Shown one piece after another: positions 4,424 through 57,373 of a DNA stretch of 64,000 nt. The notes under the pieces are model-generated. The model was not told where the DNA came from, did not search any database, and saw only the letters and a list, made by a program, of their open reading frames with translations. A program made the translations under genes and the position numbers. The stretch comes from Methanosarcinales archaeon (GTDB taxonomy: Archaea > Halobacteriota > Methanosarcinia > Methanosarcinales > Methanocomedenaceae): the NCBI GenBank assembly GCA_021108405.1, contig JAIOQW010000336.1:1777-65776 (forward strand), read 5' to 3'. Each line of letters starts with the position of its first letter. The first letter of the stretch is position 1.

Positions 4424-4547
4424 TTTTTAAAAATTTTTTTTGAATTCTTTTTTAATAATTAATAGTATTTAATAGGTTAATATTGTTTAAATATTAGCCC
4501 ACATATAAATATCTTTCCCTTTTAACAGTATCTCCAAAAAACTTTTT

Positions 4548-4633
4548 GACACTGATTTCGCAGATACATCCACCTTTCATGAAGGTGAATGCCTGCAACG
4601 CTTACAAGGGCGTGCAGGGAAAACAGATTTTTT
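4548..4633 (+). repeat. GC-rich double-hairpin element, family B, copy B1 (divergent)
   Basis: ACACTGAT..CAGATACAT, then hairpin CACCTT-TCATG-AAGGTG, then hairpin CCTGCAACGC-TTACAA-GGGCGTGCAGG, then AAACAGAT plus a T-run. The architecture matches 5363..5497, but the first stem has a different sequence. Confidence 0.8.
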
Positions 4634-4851
4634 AAGTCAAAATGCTAATTTGATGATTTCCATTGTATTACAGGTATAAATAACCATTCCGGAATAAATC
4701 AGATTTCAACCTTATCGATTATTTCTTTCATACATCGAGTATTTTGAAAGGAAATTAAGTAATTTGTTAGATCTTATGTACCATCTCATCCTGAAAGCCA
4801 TATTGCTATAATATCCTGGAGATCGGCTATGGACATTAAGTGTCCTCTTAC

Positions 4852-4986
4852 TCAAATATCTTTTAACCAGTGATGAATAGCATCTTGACCATCATCATCC
4901 ACAACCCACGTTGCACCACCTGCCACATTCACTAGAGCAAATACTATTGTGACTGTAACCACCAGCATTGGTAACAATCGTATCAT
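4852..4986 (-). pseudogene. 44-codon relic: signal peptide plus the first residues of a beta-helix surface protein
   Basis: GGAGG lies 8 nt upstream of the ATG at 4986. The ORF reads MIRLLPMLVVTVTIVFALVNVAGGATWVVDDDGQDAIHHWLKDI*. The ATWVVDDDG opening is typical of the N-termini of NosD-like surface proteins, but the ORF stops after 44 codons. It could instead be a genuine small secreted peptide. Confidence 0.35.
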
Positions 4987-5126
4987 AATGCTGCCTCCAT
5001 ATGCGTATTTAGATTATCCACCCTACTGTTATCATCTCTAAATAATTCCGCTGCTTTTAGCTCTTTGTCCTCAACTACGATTAAAGACATTATTGAATTT
5101 ATTAAAAAGTAAAATATACTGTTTTT

Positions 5127-5185
5127 TATAGTATATTAAGTATAACTTAATATACTCAAGAAAATCCGACCGAAGGGAGGATTTT
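5127..5185 (-). repeat. Family A element, short copy A3
   Basis: TATATTAAGT-ATA-ACTTAATATA palindrome followed by AAAATCCGACCGAAGGGAGGATTTT. The central module is missing. Both palindrome arms carry matched changes (C to T, G to A) relative to the other copies. Confidence 0.85.
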
Positions 5186-5362
5186 GTTCTAGTTATATCC
5201 TTTAATATAATCCTCTTAATACAATTGTATACTACATTAATACTATTTAAATAAAAACTTTTTTCACCTATTTCACTACCTCACAAAATTTTTATATACA
5301 AATGGCACTATCCTAAAAACCAGTTATTTCAATAGAGGATTATTTAAATCGATAATTTCATA

Positions 5363-5497
5363 GACACGGATACATTCAACTCCTGCGGAGTTGAATGCCT
5401 GCAACGCCTAAGGGGCGTGCAGGTAACACAGATACACTCACCTCCTACGGAGTTGAGTGCCTGCTACGCCTGAAGGGCGTGCAGGTTACACGGATTT
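5363..5497 (+). repeat. Family B element, copy B2 (two tandem units)
   Basis: Unit a: ACACGGATACAT, then CATTCAACTCC-TGC-GGAGTTGAATG, then CCTGCAACGCC-TAAG-GGGCGTGCAGG, then TAACACAGAT. Unit b follows directly with CACTCACCTCC-TAC-GGAGTTGAGTG and CCTGCTACGCC-TGAA-GGGCGTGCAGG. Confidence 0.9.
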
Positions 5498-5568
5498 AAG
5501 GTTGTTGTGGTCGATATCATAGGATTCCATTAAGTTTGTGATAGAAGGTATTTGATCAAAATCAAATC

Positions 5569-5601
5569 GGTGTTAATCCGTGTAAATCCGTGTCTGAAAA
5601 A
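5569..5601 (-). repeat. Family B terminus (phased octamers)
   Basis: GGTGTTAATCCGTGTAAATCCGTGTCTGAAAAA. ATCCGTGT occurs twice at a 10-nt spacing. ATCCGTGTCT is the inverted complement of AGACACGGAT at 5362-5371. Confidence 0.75.
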
Positions 5602-5754
5602 TAACTGGAAAATGGTACAGTGCCTATACAAATATAGGTATCAATTTAAATTCATTTTAATCTTTCTATTTATTCTTAATATTTTGTCTATTTATAAAAA
5701 TTCTACAAAATATAGAAAACTACGTTAAAAATATTGATCTTATATTTCATAAAC

Positions 5755-6492
5755 TCACGCTTTAGTAATAATATCAGTCTTCATCCTACTTCTAACGATC
5801 TTTGGAAGGTCACCCCATACCGCAAATCTATCTTTCTTTACAATAAGTGCCCCATCTATACCCTTAATACCCCTTATCATATCAAAACAACTCTCGATCC
5901 CATCAACATCATTCACTTCATTACCAAGTGCAGTACCCATTGCGTCTGCAAGTGGAACATCTCCTGAAACCACAACTGCAGCATCAGCATTCCCCAAACT
6001 TATCGATGGCCCCACAGTACCTGACGATGTGCAGATACCTATGATATCCTGGCATGGCGCTACATCCAATGCCAGGTCCTGTATGGAAGAGCATGCTGTA
6101 TATACTCCTACTATAACCGGCCTATCGGTAACAAGAGCAATATCCCCTCCATTATCAACAAACGCATACACTGCACCTGCATCAATCATAGCCTCTACTG
6201 CAAGAACTGCTATAGTACCTGCCACAGCACTCATGGGTCCGATACCTGCAACCTGTCCGGCGTGTGCCATACGGCGAATGATCTCAGGAGCAGACGAGAG
6301 AACTTCATATGGCTCAAAAGTAATTTGAAAGAAAGGATCTGATCTGATAAAGTCTTCCAGAAGGCTTCGCTGATATCTGATAGAGGCCCTGGCAATCTCG
6401 ATGATATCTTCTGAGTCAGCACCTATGGTTACAATAGTCTCTTTAAGTCTGTAATGGACATGCAAAGTAATATCACTGTTCGGATCAAACAT
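5755..6492 (-). CDS. UPF0280-like (ApbE-fold) conserved archaeal protein
   Basis: 245-aa ORF. The overall sequence (MFDPNSDITLHVHYRLKETIVTIGADS..., Gly/Ala-rich core) matches my recollection of the methanogen UPF0280 family. Not verifiable here. Confidence 0.5.
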   Translation of the reverse strand: MFDPNSDITLHVHYRLKETIVTIGADSEDIIEIARASIRYQRSLLEDFIRSDPFFQITFEPYEVLSSAPEIIRRMAHAGQVAGIGPMSAVAGTIAVLAVEAMIDAGAVYAFVDNGGDIALVTDRPVIVGVYTACSSIQDLALDVAPCQDIIGICTSSGTVGPSISLGNADAAVVVSGDVPLADAMGTALGNEVNDVDGIESCFDMIRGIKGIDGALIVKKDRFAVWGDLPKIVRSRMKTDIITKA

Positions 6493-15524: not shown

Positions 15525-15668
15525 ATTTCTTTTTATAGTATATCAAGATAACAATAGGAACAAAATCCTCCCTTCGGTCGGATTTTCTTGACTGAAGCTT
15601 CGAAGAAGCTGAAGATTAGAAAATGTGAAACATTTTCGATATATCAAGTAATACTTGATATACTATAC
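15525..15668 (+). repeat. Family A element, copy A2, with 14-bp terminal inverted repeats
   Basis: TATAGTATATCAAG (15525-15538) and CTTGATATACTATA (15654-15667) bracket the core AAAATCCTCCCTTCGGTCGGATTTTCTTGACTGAAGCTTCGAAGAAGCTGAAGATTAGAAAATGTGAAACATTTTCGATATATCAAGTAATACTTGATAT. Confidence 0.9.
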
Positions 15669-15858
15669 AAAAATTTCAATAATTACTTATATGATTAATA
15701 CTTAAGCAAACTCACACATAATAGCAATCGATGATGTTTCTGATTTTATTCAGGTCAATGGATATGGATTCGCAGAGAAAAAACTTGAAAATCCAATATT
15801 CATGGAGGGGATAAAAACGCAAATTGTAAATGATTGTTATTAATTTGGAGGATAAGAA

Positions 15859-16233: not shown

Positions 16234-16259
16234 AGAGCCTTATGGCTCTTCTTTTTTTT
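16233..16259 (+). terminator. Hairpin plus T8 terminator-like signal
   Basis: AAGAGCC-TTAT-GGCTCTT followed by C and eight T, starting within the stop codon of 15859..16233. Confidence 0.6.
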
Positions 16260-16261
16260 AA

Positions 16262-16389
16262 ATATATCAAGTATAACTTGATATATCGAAAATGCTCACT
16301 CTGTTCACATTTTCTAATCTTCAGCTTCTTCTAATCTTCAGCTTCTTCTAATCTTCAGTCAAGAAAATCCGAGCGTTAGTGAGGATTTT
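16262..16389 (-). repeat. Family A element, copy A4
   Basis: ATATCAAGT-ATA-ACTTGATAT, AAAATGCTCACTCTGTTCACATTTTCTAATCTTCAG, three tandem TCTAATCTTCAGCTTCT-type units, then AAAATCCGAGCGTTAGTGAGGATTTT. Confidence 0.9.
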
Positions 16390-16760: not shown

Positions 16761-16857
16761 GCCGCCATAACTCAGTTGGTAGAGTGTCTGGCTGTTAAAT
16801 AACCTTAAGTGGTATGCAGCAACCAGAATGTCACAGGTCCGAGTCCTGTTGGCGGCG
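16761..16857 (+). tRNA. tRNA-Asn (GTT) with a 24-nt intron at position 37/38
   Basis: GCCGCCA/TGGCGGC acceptor, D-arm ACTC-AGTTGGTA-GAGT, anticodon stem TCTGG...CCAGA (16787-91 and 16823-27), anticodon GTT at 16794-96. The intron is ~16798-16821. T-arm ACAGG-TCCGAGT-CCTGT. 73 nt after splicing. Confidence 0.9.
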
Positions 16858-43236: not shown

Positions 43237-43330
43237 CTTAAATCCGTGTAAATCTGTGTTACTTGCACGCCCCTTAGGCGTTGCAGGCATTCAACTCCGC
43301 AGGAGTTGAATGTATCCGTGTCTGAAAAAA
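43237..43330 (-). repeat. Family B element, copy B3
   Basis: Its reverse complement is nearly identical to unit a of B2: AGACACGGATACATTCAACTCCTGCGGAGTTGAATGCCTGCAACGCCTAAGGGGCGTGCAAGTAACACAGATTTACACGGATTT. Confidence 0.9.
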
Positions 43331-43344
43331 GGTCTGAATCAAAA

Positions 43345-44427
43345 ATGAACACCACCACCCAAATCATTACAATAAATATCACAAACACTAACAAAACCAG
43401 GCAATACTCTCTAATACAACAAGCTGCTGCAATCATTAAAACAGGCGGTACTGTAGCTTTCCCTACGGAAACAGTATACGGATTAGGAGCTAATGCTTTA
43501 GACCCGAATGCAGTTAAAAAGATCTTCAAAGCAAAAAACCGGCCGTCTGATAATCCCCTGATCGTTCATATCTCATCAAAAGAACAGATACATGACCTTG
43601 CCGAAAACATACCAAAAACCGCACTTAAACTTGCAGATGCCTTCTGGCCTGGTCCGCTTACTATGATCCTCAAGCGAAAAAAGATAGTACCTGATATCAC
43701 TACATGCAATCTTGATACGGTTGCTATCAGGATCCCTGATAATCCTATAGCCCTTGAACTGATAACACTTAGTGGTGTTCCTATAGCCGCACCCAGTGCC
43801 AATCTGTCAGGTAGGCCCAGCCCGACGACTGCCCGGCATGTGATAAATGACCTTGGTGGCAGGATAGATGCAATAATTAACGCTGGGCCGGTAGAGATCG
43901 GAGTTGAATCTACGGTAGTGGATATGACATCAAGTTTACCGGTTATTCTTAGACCTGGCAGAGTCGGAATTGAGGAATTGAAGAAATGCATTGGTGAAGT
44001 TAGAATTGGTTATACTGAGCAATCAACTGCAAAAGAGGATATTGTCAGATCGCCTGGTATGAAATATATCCATTATTCTCCACAGACAAAAGTGGTACTG
44101 GTTAAAGGTAGCAGGGATGTGGTTGCAGATACTATAATGGAACTGGTATTAAAATATCAAGAAGATAAGCTTACTTGCGGACTTCTTTTATTAAACGAAA
44201 CCCAGAAACACATCGCAGAATATATAACTATAAAAGAGATGTTCTCATTAGGTAAAAAGAATGAACCATCGGATGCTGCATACAATTTGTTTGCCGGTCT
44301 ACGGTATCTTGATGAGCGAAATGTTGATGTGATCATAGTAGATGGGTCGCTGGGACATGAAGGTATAGGAGAAGCTGTTTGGAACAGATTGGGAAAAGCT
44401 GCTGATGAAATAATAAATGTTACATAA
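43345..44427 (+). CDS. sua5: Threonylcarbamoyl-AMP synthase (Sua5/TsaC with C-terminal Sua5 domain)
   Basis: IIKTGGTVAFPTETVYGLGANAL, KIFKAKNRPSDNPLIVHI, GPLT, SANLSGRPSPT. The track start at 43306 lies inside repeat B3, so ATG 43345 is preferred. Confidence 0.85.
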   Translation: MNTTTQIITINITNTNKTRQYSLIQQAAAIIKTGGTVAFPTETVYGLGANALDPNAVKKIFKAKNRPSDNPLIVHISSKEQIHDLAENIPKTALKLADAFWPGPLTMILKRKKIVPDITTCNLDTVAIRIPDNPIALELITLSGVPIAAPSANLSGRPSPTTARHVINDLGGRIDAIINAGPVEIGVESTVVDMTSSLPVILRPGRVGIEELKKCIGEVRIGYTEQSTAKEDIVRSPGMKYIHYSPQTKVVLVKGSRDVVADTIMELVLKYQEDKLTCGLLLLNETQKHIAEYITIKEMFSLGKKNEPSDAAYNLFAGLRYLDERNVDVIIVDGSLGHEGIGEAVWNRLGKAADEIINVT

Positions 44428-44742: not shown

Positions 44743-44904
44743 ATAGTATATAAAACATAACTTTATATATCTAAAATGCTCACTCGGTTCACATTTTCTA
44801 ATCCTCCATTCTTCGGGAATGTCGGACGAAGATTCTTTGAATCTTCTAATCCTCCATTCTTCGGGAATGTCGGTAAAGAAAATCAGACCGAAGGGAGGAT
44901 TTTG
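44743..44904 (-). repeat. Family A element, copy A5 (expanded central module)
   Basis: TATATAAA-ACATAAC-TTTATATA palindrome and AAAATGCTCACTCGGTTCACATTTTCTAATCC. Two copies of TCTAATCCTCCATTCTTCGGGAATGTCGG flank the hairpin GAAGATTC-TTT-GAATCTTC. Ends with AAAATCAGACCGAAGGGAGGATTTT. Confidence 0.9.
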
Positions 44905-44951
44905 TTTTAGATCTATTAGAGGTCTATCTACAGGGATAAGGAGAAATAAAT

Positions 44952-55964: not shown

Positions 55965-56749
55965 TTATTTATCGAAATCAAATAATAACCATTTCCACAT
56001 GGGAACATATTTTATCTTGAATCCCTTTATCTCTTCTTCACTTTCGAAATCGTCTGTGATTATGAGTCCTTTCGTCAATTTAAACTCCTTCATAGCCCGT
56101 ATCAATGATCTTATTTCCCTTTCCTTTGTTTCCATACTGGTGATGCCATGACAGACCTGAATCAACTGTATCACGTCCAGGCCTTCCTTTACAACAAAAT
56201 CAACTTCTCTTTGCTGGTAATCCTTCCAGTAATATATCTCGATCTGTGGATTGAACGATTGTCTTTTTTTTAATTCTACTGCTATGATGTTCTCCATGAT
56301 CTTGCTGAGATTTTCCAAGAACCTGATACGATTACTTTTGCCTCGCTCCGCTCATGCACCCCTCTTGCAAACCTTTCCCACTCCGGGATATTCTGTATCT
56401 CATCTAAAAATATGAAAGGTTTGCTTTTCGGTTTTACTTTTTCCAGATAGGTGTTGTAGGTATCTATCATTAATTCAAGATTTCTTTGCCAGTAACGTTC
56501 GTCCTCAAAATTAACTATAAGGGTGTCAGCATTTTGCTGATCGATCAATTGTCTGGCGATCTGTTTTATAAGAGTTGACTTCCCGCTTCGCCTAATTCCT
56601 GCTATGCAGATTATCTGGTTTGTTTTTGTAATAAGGCTTATAAGAGTGTTCAGGTATTCTTTCCTTGTTATCCCTGTATTTATTTCCTTAGCCCAAAAAT
56701 TCCAGTCTGAAAGGATTTCGATTATCTGGTTTTTTTGTATCCACTTCAA
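55965..56749 (-). pseudogene. AAA ATPase (DUF4143 family) with internal deletion and frameshift
   Basis: Track ORF 56282..56749 has the P-loop GIRRSGKSTLIKQ and Walker B FIFLDEIQ, and ends ..VIVSGSWKISARSWRTS*. The overlapping ORF 55965..56318 in another frame resumes at ..ENLSKIMENIIAVEL...YYWKDYQQREVDFVV...VPMWKWLL. The ~150 aa normally between these parts are absent. Confidence 0.75.
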
Positions 56750-56790
56750 AAAGTATGGTATTTTGACATTTGTGATCGGTTAAGGAATTT

Positions 56791-56880
56791 TAATCCGTGT
56801 TAATCTGTGTTACCTGCACGCCCTTTAGGCGTAGCAGGCACTCAACTCCGTAGGAGTTGAGTGTATCCGTGTCTGAAAAA
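56791..56880 (-). repeat. Family B element, copy B4
   Basis: TAATCCGTGTTAATCTGTGTTACCTGCACGCCCTTTAGGCGTAGCAGGCACTCAACTCCGTAGGAGTTGAGTGTATCCGTGTCTGAAAAA. The stem of hairpin 1 carries a C:G pair where B2a and B3 have T:A. Confidence 0.9.
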
Positions 56881-56984
56881 ACATTTTTTGACTTTATCAA
56901 GATTACTTTCTATTCTATATAATGTATAACCCTGGATAAGAATCGTAAACAATGTACACTTTCTTGTTAGAATGTACTTTTTTT

Positions 56985-57015
56985 TAGACACAGATTAACA
57001 CGGATTTACACAGAT
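56985..57015 (+). repeat. Three phased octamers ACAC(A/G)GAT (family B terminus, opposite orientation)
   Basis: TAGACACAGATTAACACGGATTTACACAGAT. The octamers recur at exactly 10-nt spacing. Confidence 0.8.
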
Positions 57016-57219
57016 TTTTCAAGAGGCAATATTTCATTAAAAAAATTAGTAAATTATCATGATTCTTAAAGAGGTACTAATTACCCTTAGATTTGAAGTG
57101 GATACGTTTTTTTGCATAATTTACTATTATGTGGATTAAATATTTAAGTTTTTAGTTCACATGTGGGTTAAAAACCGTGTTTTTAGATTTATTTGTGGGT
57201 TAAAATTATAGATTTTTAA

Positions 57220-57321
57220 TAGTATTTCAAGTATAACTTGAATCGACAATACTTTGAATTTTCTAATCTTCGGCTCTTTTAAGAGCCTCAGTCAAGAAAA
57301 TCCGACCAGAGGGAGGATTTT
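57220..57321 (-). repeat. Family A element, copy A6
   Basis: TTCAAGT-ATA-ACTTGAA palindrome, TTTTCTAATCTTCG, the hairpin GGCTCTT-TT-AAGAGCC, then CAGTCAAGAAAATCCGACCAGAGGGAGGATTTT. Confidence 0.9.
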
Positions 57322-57373
57322 ATTCTAGTCGCTGACCTAAATCCTTTTATCATACCAGGATATTCTATATCAT

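Follow-up and report, generated by a model that had tools for sequence, protein, structure and literature searches.

Double-hairpin repeats with phased octamer arrays lie inside miniature inverted-repeat transposable elements of a Methanosarcinales archaeon

What kind of element is the GC-rich repeat that occupies positions 5362-5601 of a 64,000-nucleotide stretch of contig JAIOQW010000336.1, from a Methanosarcinales archaeon? For this stretch (hereafter the window, meaning all 64,000 nucleotides), an original prediction had described four loci, B1 to B4, in which two adjacent hairpins are flanked by ACACRGAT octamers in 10-nt phase, and had compared the unit at 5362-5601 to a miniature inverted-repeat transposable element (MITE). 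The sequences it described are all present, in place or within a few bases. We found that the 5362-5601 locus is the interior of a classical MITE, here termed MITE-1, with terminal inverted repeats (TIRs), target-site duplications (TSDs) and a high copy number; the kind of element had been recognized, while its boundaries had been placed wrongly, the true TIRs being situated 58 bp and 27 bp outside those proposed. In the reading that we develop below and consider probable, the locus belongs to a non-autonomous DNA transposon of an anaerobic methanotrophic archaeon of the ANME-2c type, the octamer arrays would be bound by a transposase, and the 52-nt double hairpin (dh) would be a separable cargo spread by recombination.

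The host was assigned from two proteins encoded in the window, arginyl-tRNA synthetase (ArgRS) and acetate-CoA ligase. Both are identical to proteins from a Methanosarcinales archaeon metagenome-assembled genome (MAG), MCD4846075.1 and MCD4846117.1, and cluster at 90% identity with proteins of Candidatus Methanomarinus / ANME-2 cluster archaeon HR1; this clustering points to an ANME-2c-type methanotroph.

Metagenome loci were collected by scanning for GGAGTTGARTGCCTGCWACGCC, which gave at least 120 stretches of DNA. When positions 5000-5900 of the window were compared with these loci by BLAST, the matches listed included more than 30 copies of MITE-1 with 92-97% identity, all of them starting at 5301-5304 and ending at 5620-5625. 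The flanking DNA differs from one copy to the next and a 9-bp direct repeat brackets each; among the same matches this TSD is perfect (9/9) at 24 of 32 distinct sites and 8/9 at 5 more. Both termini follow the pattern GGCACTGT(C/A)C...CCAGTTATTT and begin with GGCACT, the left end being GGCACTGTCCTAAAAACCAGTTATTT, and in the metagenome copies left and right ends pair at distances of 207-383 bp. As for coding capacity, the only open reading frame (ORF) touching MITE-1 is a spurious one of 58 aa that overlaps the right end and runs beyond it. The element is thus shorter than ~600 bp, non-coding, bounded by TIRs and by a duplication of fixed length, and present in many dispersed, near-identical copies, as is characteristic of MITEs.

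Each arm of MITE-1 is arranged, from outside to inside, as TIR, a run of T followed by C, and three 10-mers (AGACACGGAT, TWACACRGAT, TWACACRGAT), with an AT-rich 29-nt stretch taking the place of the T-run and C in the left arm; a 70-bp AT-rich centre separates the arms. The pair AGACACGGAT/ATCCGTGTCT, which had been proposed as inverted termini, is therefore subterminal, the element ending at 5304 and 5624 (Table 1). A similar correction applies to locus B4, whose pieces at 56791-56880 and 56985-57015 belong to a single 369-bp element (MITE-4, 56737-57105), in which the sequence of the short module diverges from that of the long one. Among the matches listed, the MITE-4 family was found at 21 distinct sites, with sizes of 114-679 bp and a perfect 8/8 TSD at 10 of them; its minimal forms are built with AGACAGGAT 10-mers on the same plan as MITE-1. 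Both MITE-1 and MITE-4 are units that have been transposed, with a duplication of fixed length for each.

Table 1. Coordinates of the elements, their parts and related repeats (window positions unless a metagenome locus is named)
Feature	Position	Strand	Description and evidence
MITE-1	5304-5624	+	321-bp non-coding element; encloses the unit 5362-5601
Left TSD of MITE-1 (9 bp), TATACAAAT	5295-5303	.	Same 9-mer at 5625-5633
Right TSD of MITE-1 (9 bp), TATACAAAT	5625-5633	.	Same 9-mer at 5295-5303
Left TIR of MITE-1, GGCACTATCCTAAAAACCAGTTATTT	5304-5329	+	Pairs with the reverse complement of 5596-5624
Right TIR of MITE-1, reverse complement GGCACTGTACCATTTTCCAGTTATTTTTC	5596-5624	-	BLAST copy ends and end pairing
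MITE-1 left array, 10-mer no. 1, AGACACGGAT	5362-5371	+	Sequence and octamer count
dh copy a (52 nt)	5372-5423	+	a-type: T:A pair, perfect stem 1, bulged A in stem 2; nhmmer E=5e-17, fold z=-6.9
MITE-1 left array, 10-mer no. 2, TAACACAGAT	5424-5433	+	Sequence
dh copy b (52 nt)	5434-5485	+	b-type: C:G pair, C.T mismatch, bulged T; nhmmer E=8e-19
MITE-1 left array, 10-mer no. 3, TTACACGGAT	5486-5495	+	Sequence
MITE-1 AT-rich centre	5496-5565	.	31% GC; site of the 62-nt family A repeat in 383-bp variants
MITE-1 right array	5566-5595	-	Three inverted 10-mers, without dh
MITE-4	56737-57105	-	369 bp; GTATCCACTTCAAA TIR at both ends; holds both B4 pieces
MITE-4 TSD (8 bp), GTTTTTTT	56729-56736 and 57106-57113		
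B4 long module in MITE-4	56791-56881	-	T-run-C, AGACACGGAT, dh 56813-56864, TAACACAGAT, TAACACGGAT
Short module in MITE-4	56986-57015	+	Three phased 10-mers (AGACACAGAT TAACACGGAT TTACACAGAT), without dh
B1, decayed module	4547-4628	+	T-run, GACACTGAT, CGCAGAT, dh 4566-4618 with altered stem 1, AAACAGAT; nhmmer E=2e-12, fold z=-4.5
B3, solo 93-bp module	43238-43330	-	T-run-C, AGACACGGAT, dh 43262-43313, TAACACAGAT, TTACACGGAT, TTAAGG
Family A, second two-hairpin repeat	2874-2996, 5121-5190(-), 15558-15673, 16252-16375(-), 44870-44906(-), 57284-57325(-)		
dh-less palindromic elements (examples)	L127 13617-13672, L147 9482-9548, L051 4181-4242, L231 780-843, L232 1257-1312		

The 10-nt phasing of the octamers was borne out. 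The window contains 19 ACACRGAT octamers where 3.9 would be expected, a count reached in none of 100 shuffles, and 14 of the 19 fall within the four named loci at spacings of 10 or 62 nt. The arrays read inward on both arms, starting ~30-45 bp inside the TIRs, and the same plan is found inside the outer TIR of MITE-1, MITE-4 and a group of GAGAC-type elements; elements of other lineages have 10-mers built on CACAGAG, CGCAGAG, CGCAAAG or CGCAGAT, again ~30-45 bp inside an outer inverted repeat. The same DNA contains ~25 palindromic array elements of 55-75 bp devoid of dh, in which a short loop separates two sets of three phased 10-mers (CACAGAG, CGCAGAG, CGCAAAG and CGCAGAT families) and which frequently lie nested within the centre of elements of the MITE-4 type. 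From the phasing of one helical turn and the symmetric subterminal placement, it is plausible that the arrays serve as multiple binding sites for a transposase. Short motifs repeated in both orientations immediately internal to the TIRs are known transposase-binding sites in eukaryotic transposons and MITEs, such as the hexamers of Ac/Ds, the 12-mers of En/Spm and those of Emigrant/Lemi1 (PMC1636448); the arrays described here differ in their archaeal host, their strict 10-bp phase and their 2-4 repeats per arm, and binding to them is putative.

The double hairpins were searched for with an nhmmer profile built from all copies, which detected five in the window, four intact and one diverged (that of B1), with E values from 8e-19 to 2e-12; the copy in B3 was delimited at 43263-43313(-) and the remaining ones as given in Table 1. 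A pattern for hairpin 2 matched the window 4 times at up to 3 mismatches, where 0 matches were expected. Each unit folds into two adjacent hairpins on either strand, with z from -4.5 to -7.4 relative to shuffles, and the description of these units as GC-rich islands holds, since they have 53-62% GC within an intergenic region of 32% GC. Further copies do exist: at least 173 dh were counted in the at least 120 metagenome stretches, plus several archaeal MAGs. A scan of genome collections with the hairpin-2 pattern returned mostly chance matches in GC-rich bacteria and left 8 usable loci from 6 archaeal MAGs, dh being present in ANME-2 cluster MAG_011, a Methanobacteriota MAG, Candidatus Methanovorans (ANME-3) and three Methanosarcinaceae MAGs. 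Collections of viruses, plasmids and phages yielded no dh and no MITE; one viral match to the MITE-4 TIR was discarded as a chance match within a phage structural gene.

Among 57 distinct 52-nt sequences, 20 columns of the dh show no variation and another 19 reach at least 90% conservation, with loops that vary freely. Its stems are nearly invariant in ANME-2, ANME-3 and Methanosarcinaceae, while loops, arrays and TIRs differ, the 10-mers flanking the copies of other lineages being CGCAAAG, CACAGAG and ACGCAGAT. Hairpin 1 (CACTCACCTCC/GGAGTTGAGTG) and hairpin 2 (CCTGCTACGCC/GGCGTGCAGG) are unrelated in sequence. The compensated T:A/C:G change in hairpin 1, from which selection on structure had been argued, is real, and the inner stem of B1 is indeed a different one; the argument itself finds weak support, as only one pair of 21 covaries (pair 4-24, with C:G in 32, U:A in 18 and U:G in 4 of the 57 sequences) and beyond it conservation of the stems is at the level of sequence. 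At pair 8-20, 29 sequences have A:T and 28 have a C.T mismatch; C.A mismatches occur about as often as G.U, with no sign of an RNA strand. The covarying pair, the divergent stem of B1 and the variable loops thus argue weakly for structural selection on the dh, and conservation of the stems as sequence points to recognition by a protein.

Two points had been overlooked: the 52-nt dh is an insertion separable from the arrays that contain it, and it is shared between different MITE families and with other genera. Copies of MITE-1 that all have three left-arm octamers carry 0, 1 or 2 dh: the 207-bp form of L156 has none (AGACACGGAT-TT-ACACAGAT-TT-ACACGGAT), the 269-bp form of L198 has one after the first 10-mer, and the 321-bp copy of the window has two. 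In the MITE-4 family, the copy of L208 and that of the window differ by exactly the 52-nt dh, located between ...CAGACACRGAT and TAACAC..., and the two junctions have no bases in common. Presence or absence of the dh therefore concerns an exact 52-nt block, without duplication or microhomology, in two MITE families. In each of 160 copies, the dh is preceded on its 5' side by a 10-mer that ends in ...RGAT, ...AAGG or ...GAGG and followed on its 3' side by the next 10-mer; in more than 100 arrays of all families, the dh (D) is found on one arm only and nearly always after the first 10-mer (O), the arrangements being ODO, ODOO, ODODO and a single OODO.

The modules are also exchanged and recombined. 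The two dh of MITE-1 belong to different sublineages (a-type and b-type) unlike at several positions, and a 259-bp class of MITE-1 consists of single-dh copies that are a/b recombinants. The b-type is the commonest form in other element families, and it is identical, loops included, to copies found in ACGCAGAT-type arrays. At L214 1718-2018, MITE-4 termini on both sides surround a MITE-1 interior (array, dh, 70-bp centre, inverted array), a chimera which indicates that modules pass between families. In L113 the dh occurs in tandem with a period of 52 and no octamers between. The 383-bp copies of MITE-1 (L154, L192) were considered as three-dh forms and rejected as such: their extra 62 nt are a family A repeat, inserted in the centre without duplication.

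These elements invite comparison with known prokaryotic MITEs, such as the Correia elements of Neisseria, SM1-SM4 of Sulfolobus and MITEAba12, which are likewise small, non-coding, high-copy and mostly intergenic, have TIRs and fixed-length TSDs, break assemblies, and include size variants and chimeras. Unlike them, the elements described here have three 10-bp-phased subterminal repeats per arm and a 52-nt dh shared by families with unrelated termini. Our search of the literature on MITEs, repeats and hairpins of Methanosarcinales found no description of them; they are previously undescribed archaeal MITE families, ordinary in kind, with an unusual, deeply conserved and precisely mobile dh cargo.

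In the mechanism that we propose, a DDE-type cut-and-paste transposase would move MITE-1 in trans, recognizing the GGCACT... TIRs and making the 9-bp duplication, and the phased 10-mers would be subterminal sites for its DNA-binding domain, all on one face of the helix. The dh would be a cargo module placed between the 10-mers of one arm, outside the terminal symmetry. Its most economical route of gain and loss would be ectopic recombination or gene conversion among the hundreds of near-identical arrays, and ectopic conversion would also account for the chimeras and the a/b recombinants; a dedicated site-specific enzyme could be an alternative route. The near-constancy of the dh stems across Methanosarcinales suggests that they are recognized by something, probably as a DNA or RNA hairpin.

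Several results weigh against this proposal. Recombination alone leaves unexplained why the dh is far more conserved than the arrays that surround it. The same arrays stand inside two unrelated types of TIR with duplications of different length (9 bp and 8 bp), which is awkward for the binding of one specific transposase. No clean empty site was found for the window's own copies at orthologous positions: relatives sharing at least 90% ArgRS identity have a different synteny at the MITE-1 locus, and one relative at this level of ArgRS identity has no dh or MITE across 21.7 kb of syntenic DNA, with family A present. Finally, no autonomous insertion sequence (IS) bearing the MITE-1 or the MITE-4 TIR was found in ~0.9 Mb of related DNA, where pairs of TIRs 0.6-4 kb apart, pairs of inverted arrays 0.4-4 kb apart and clusters of multi-copy ORFs were considered. 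Nor are the repeats the end of any IS that was found, a possibility for which the original prediction had allowed.

The candidates that this hunt produced were rejected as host genes or as two separate MITEs, among them those of L122 (CbiB-like plus aminotransferase), L179 (methyltransferase) and L180 (surface protein). A transposase fragment of the ISAzo13 family lies beside arrays at L161 5380-5958(-) (Pfam DDE_Tnp_ISAZ013, E=9e-36); it is interrupted by family A and truncated by a palindromic array element, and being itself broken by these repeats, and of a family whose duplications measure 0-4 bp, it was dismissed as the partner transposase. Families with 8-9-bp duplications include IS256, IS1, IS66, IS4 and ISH6; duplications of 8-9 bp also resemble those of hAT and Mutator (in prokaryotes, IS256).

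The seamless behaviour of the dh raises the question of whether it is itself a tiny mobile element, moved as single-stranded DNA (ssDNA) by an HUH/Y1-type enzyme in the manner of IS200/IS605 'peel and paste' or of repetitive extragenic palindromes (REPs) and their associated tyrosine transposases (RAYTs), and inserting 3' of a 10-mer (...RGAT or ...AAGG) in the arrays of other transposons. We hold this to be unlikely. Such a movement would fit the exact 52-nt presence or absence in two MITE families, the insertion point that stays constant in the 160 copies and also in lineages with other 10-mers, the identical b-type copies in arrays of differing sequence, and the tandem dh of L113; moreover, the hairpins contain imperfections, a conserved mismatch and a bulged base, that mark one strand, and family A (62 nt, two hairpins) likewise inserts free of duplication. 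A hairpin-specific enzyme would also explain the extreme conservation of the stems and the constant junction better than recombination does. Elements associated with palindromes and moved by IS200/IS605 enzymes (PATEs), and REPs or their paired form (REPINs), resemble the dh in these imperfect hairpins with bulge and mismatch, in seamless insertion or excision with neither TIR nor TSD and in an insertion point fixed by a short sequence; unlike them, the dh has two dissimilar hairpins, where IS200/IS605 ends share a single one, its junctions lie at the hairpin feet (at distances of 1 nt and 0 nt, which known Y1 substrates do not show), it has no GTAG-like motif, and its carriers have TIRs and TSDs. 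No Y1-like ORF was found among 1683 ORFs of the related genome fragments by a regular expression for the HUH ... Y motif; inverted pairs of dh do not enclose a gene the size of a RAYT gene, nor do dh pairs bracket any gene. The dh is hardly ever seen at the second junction, and the other arm is always free of it, a distribution that resembles inheritance more than free insertion. With the same doubt we entertain the further idea that the dh is a self-contained mobile DNA, smaller than any other yet seen in archaea, which would home seamlessly into array junctions through a hairpin-specific enzyme and would for that reason be kept across Methanosarcinales, family A being a second member of the class. 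Small hairpin insertions are not without parallel: the small dispersed repeats of cyanobacteria, reportedly described by Elhai et al. in 2008, are said to be hairpin-forming discrete insertions of tens of nucleotides, often nested in other repeats; they are alike in this respect, whereas sequence and host differ and the dh is tied to 10-mer arrays.

A function for the host, in which arrays and dh would act as a small structured RNA, a hairpin of the 3' or 5' untranslated region (UTR) or a phased operator array that transposons carry or that has been co-opted, appears improbable to us. Sequence conservation of the dh across genera and its strong folding would agree with such a role, as would the position of B3 and MITE-4 in divergent promoter regions beside Sua5 and Trm5 and the predicted fold of compact elements (e.g. 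L124 9470-9610) into a four-way junction whose branches are a closing 10-bp stem, hairpins 1 and 2 and an array stem. Nevertheless, Rfam gave no match to dh or MITE-1 (the best E over 5300-5650 was 0.2, and three tRNAs were the only hits at gathering score in the window), there is a single covarying pair with G.U not favoured over C.A, B3 is absent upstream of an 88%-identity Sua5 orthologue, and the copies bear transposon hallmarks at varied sites. Neighbouring genes show no consistent orientation (52 vs 50 on the 3' side and 65 vs 39 on the 5' side, counted over loci that are not independent), and for lack of such a bias a terminator or 3'-UTR role of the dh was rejected. Least credible of all, to our minds, are archaeal mosaics akin to REPs and bacterial interspersed mosaic elements (BIMEs), that is, extragenic palindromes and linkers amplified by a RAYT and recombination rather than classical MITEs: the mosaic of 10-mers, dh and family A, the variable number of units, the chimeras and the imperfect, extragenic palindromes recall them, but clear TIRs and TSDs of 8 bp or 9 bp delimit the mobile units, no GTAG-type tetranucleotide stands at the hairpin foot, and the Y1 motif screen mentioned above, the sole one made, revealed no RAYT-like gene. 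A MITE interior with transposase-bound arrays and a dh cargo spread by recombination therefore stays as our favoured reading.

ANME-2 archaea are uncultured, relevant to the methane cycle and known from poorly assembling genomes, and the MITEs described here are one direct cause of that poor assembly, as contigs of the same strain end inside them: two metagenome assemblies stop within MITE-1, at the equivalents of 5493 (L243) and 5572 (L001). Exact element ends allow annotators to mask copies, to mend start codons such as that of Sua5 and to use insertion polymorphism as a strain marker. In addition, the phased subterminal arrays offer a concrete handle for finding the responsible transposase, and the dh poses a defined question, namely what recognizes it and how it is moved without a footprint.

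The case of Sua5 deserves some detail, because the solo module B3 lies next to this gene and, as had been noticed, causes its start to be miscalled at 43306. B3 lacks an inverted partner; its end is located 15 nt upstream of the start codon ATG at 43345, and the TTG at 43306 falls within its dh. B3 is kept in the 95.7%-identical orthologous locus L224 and is missing upstream of the 88%-identity orthologue in L175, where similarity begins at 43342; this limit of similarity supports the ATG at 43345 as the start, and the Pfam domains of Sua5 are consistent with it. In L224 (1977-3160, against ~43171 of the window) the orthologous locus exceeds that of the window by ~1.2 kb; this additional DNA consists of one long minus-strand ORF, of which the window retains a short remnant, and which we take for a putative archaeal ATPase-type gene.

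Two other genes near the elements look damaged. At 55965-56749(-), an AAA_14 ATPase ORF (56282-56749) and a DUF4143 ORF (55965-56318) overlap in different frames and look like a single gene split by a frameshift, whose predicted 5' end is overlapped by the left end of MITE-4. The repeat-rich spacer 4424-5754 contains, at 4700-5000(-), the remnant of a surface-protein gene in which a signal peptide and ATWVVDDDG are fused to a C-terminal tail of the ...AIHHWL...MSIADLQDIIAIWLSG type; its ends resemble those of a 662-aa protein in L180, and it appears to be an internally deleted pseudogene.

Family A is composed of AAAATCC-loop-GGATTTT and an AT-rich palindrome, AGTATATCAAGTTATACTTGATATACT, and is usually located just past gene ends. 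Apart from the 383-bp copies of MITE-1, it is found within a transposase gene in L161, and the assemblies of a relative break in it.

A ~45-nt conserved stretch (ATCATATATMTWGCGATA..TAT.GTTGAC.CGACACTA) recurs just outside MITE-1-like termini of another lineage (L130, L161 4960-5010, L164, L199), and is either a site that these preferentially target or an older element within which they came to be nested. The metagenome contig L131 (8047 bp) is almost perfectly palindromic around its midpoint, a feature at x having its mirror image at 8048-x, probably as an artefact of amplification or assembly; its duplicate MITE copies are thus not to be counted twice. The 5' arm of hairpin 1 in b-type dh holds TCACCTCCT (window 5438-5446, and most dh copies elsewhere), which we take to be the 3' tail of archaeal 16S rRNA (anti-Shine-Dalgarno), the opposite strand carrying a perfect AGGAGGTGA; no start codon lies at a usable distance after AGGAGGTGA and a-type copies do not have the match, so it may be a coincidence. 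Finally, the tRNA gene at 16761-16857 is 97 nt long, which suggests that it contains an intron and fits an archaeal host.

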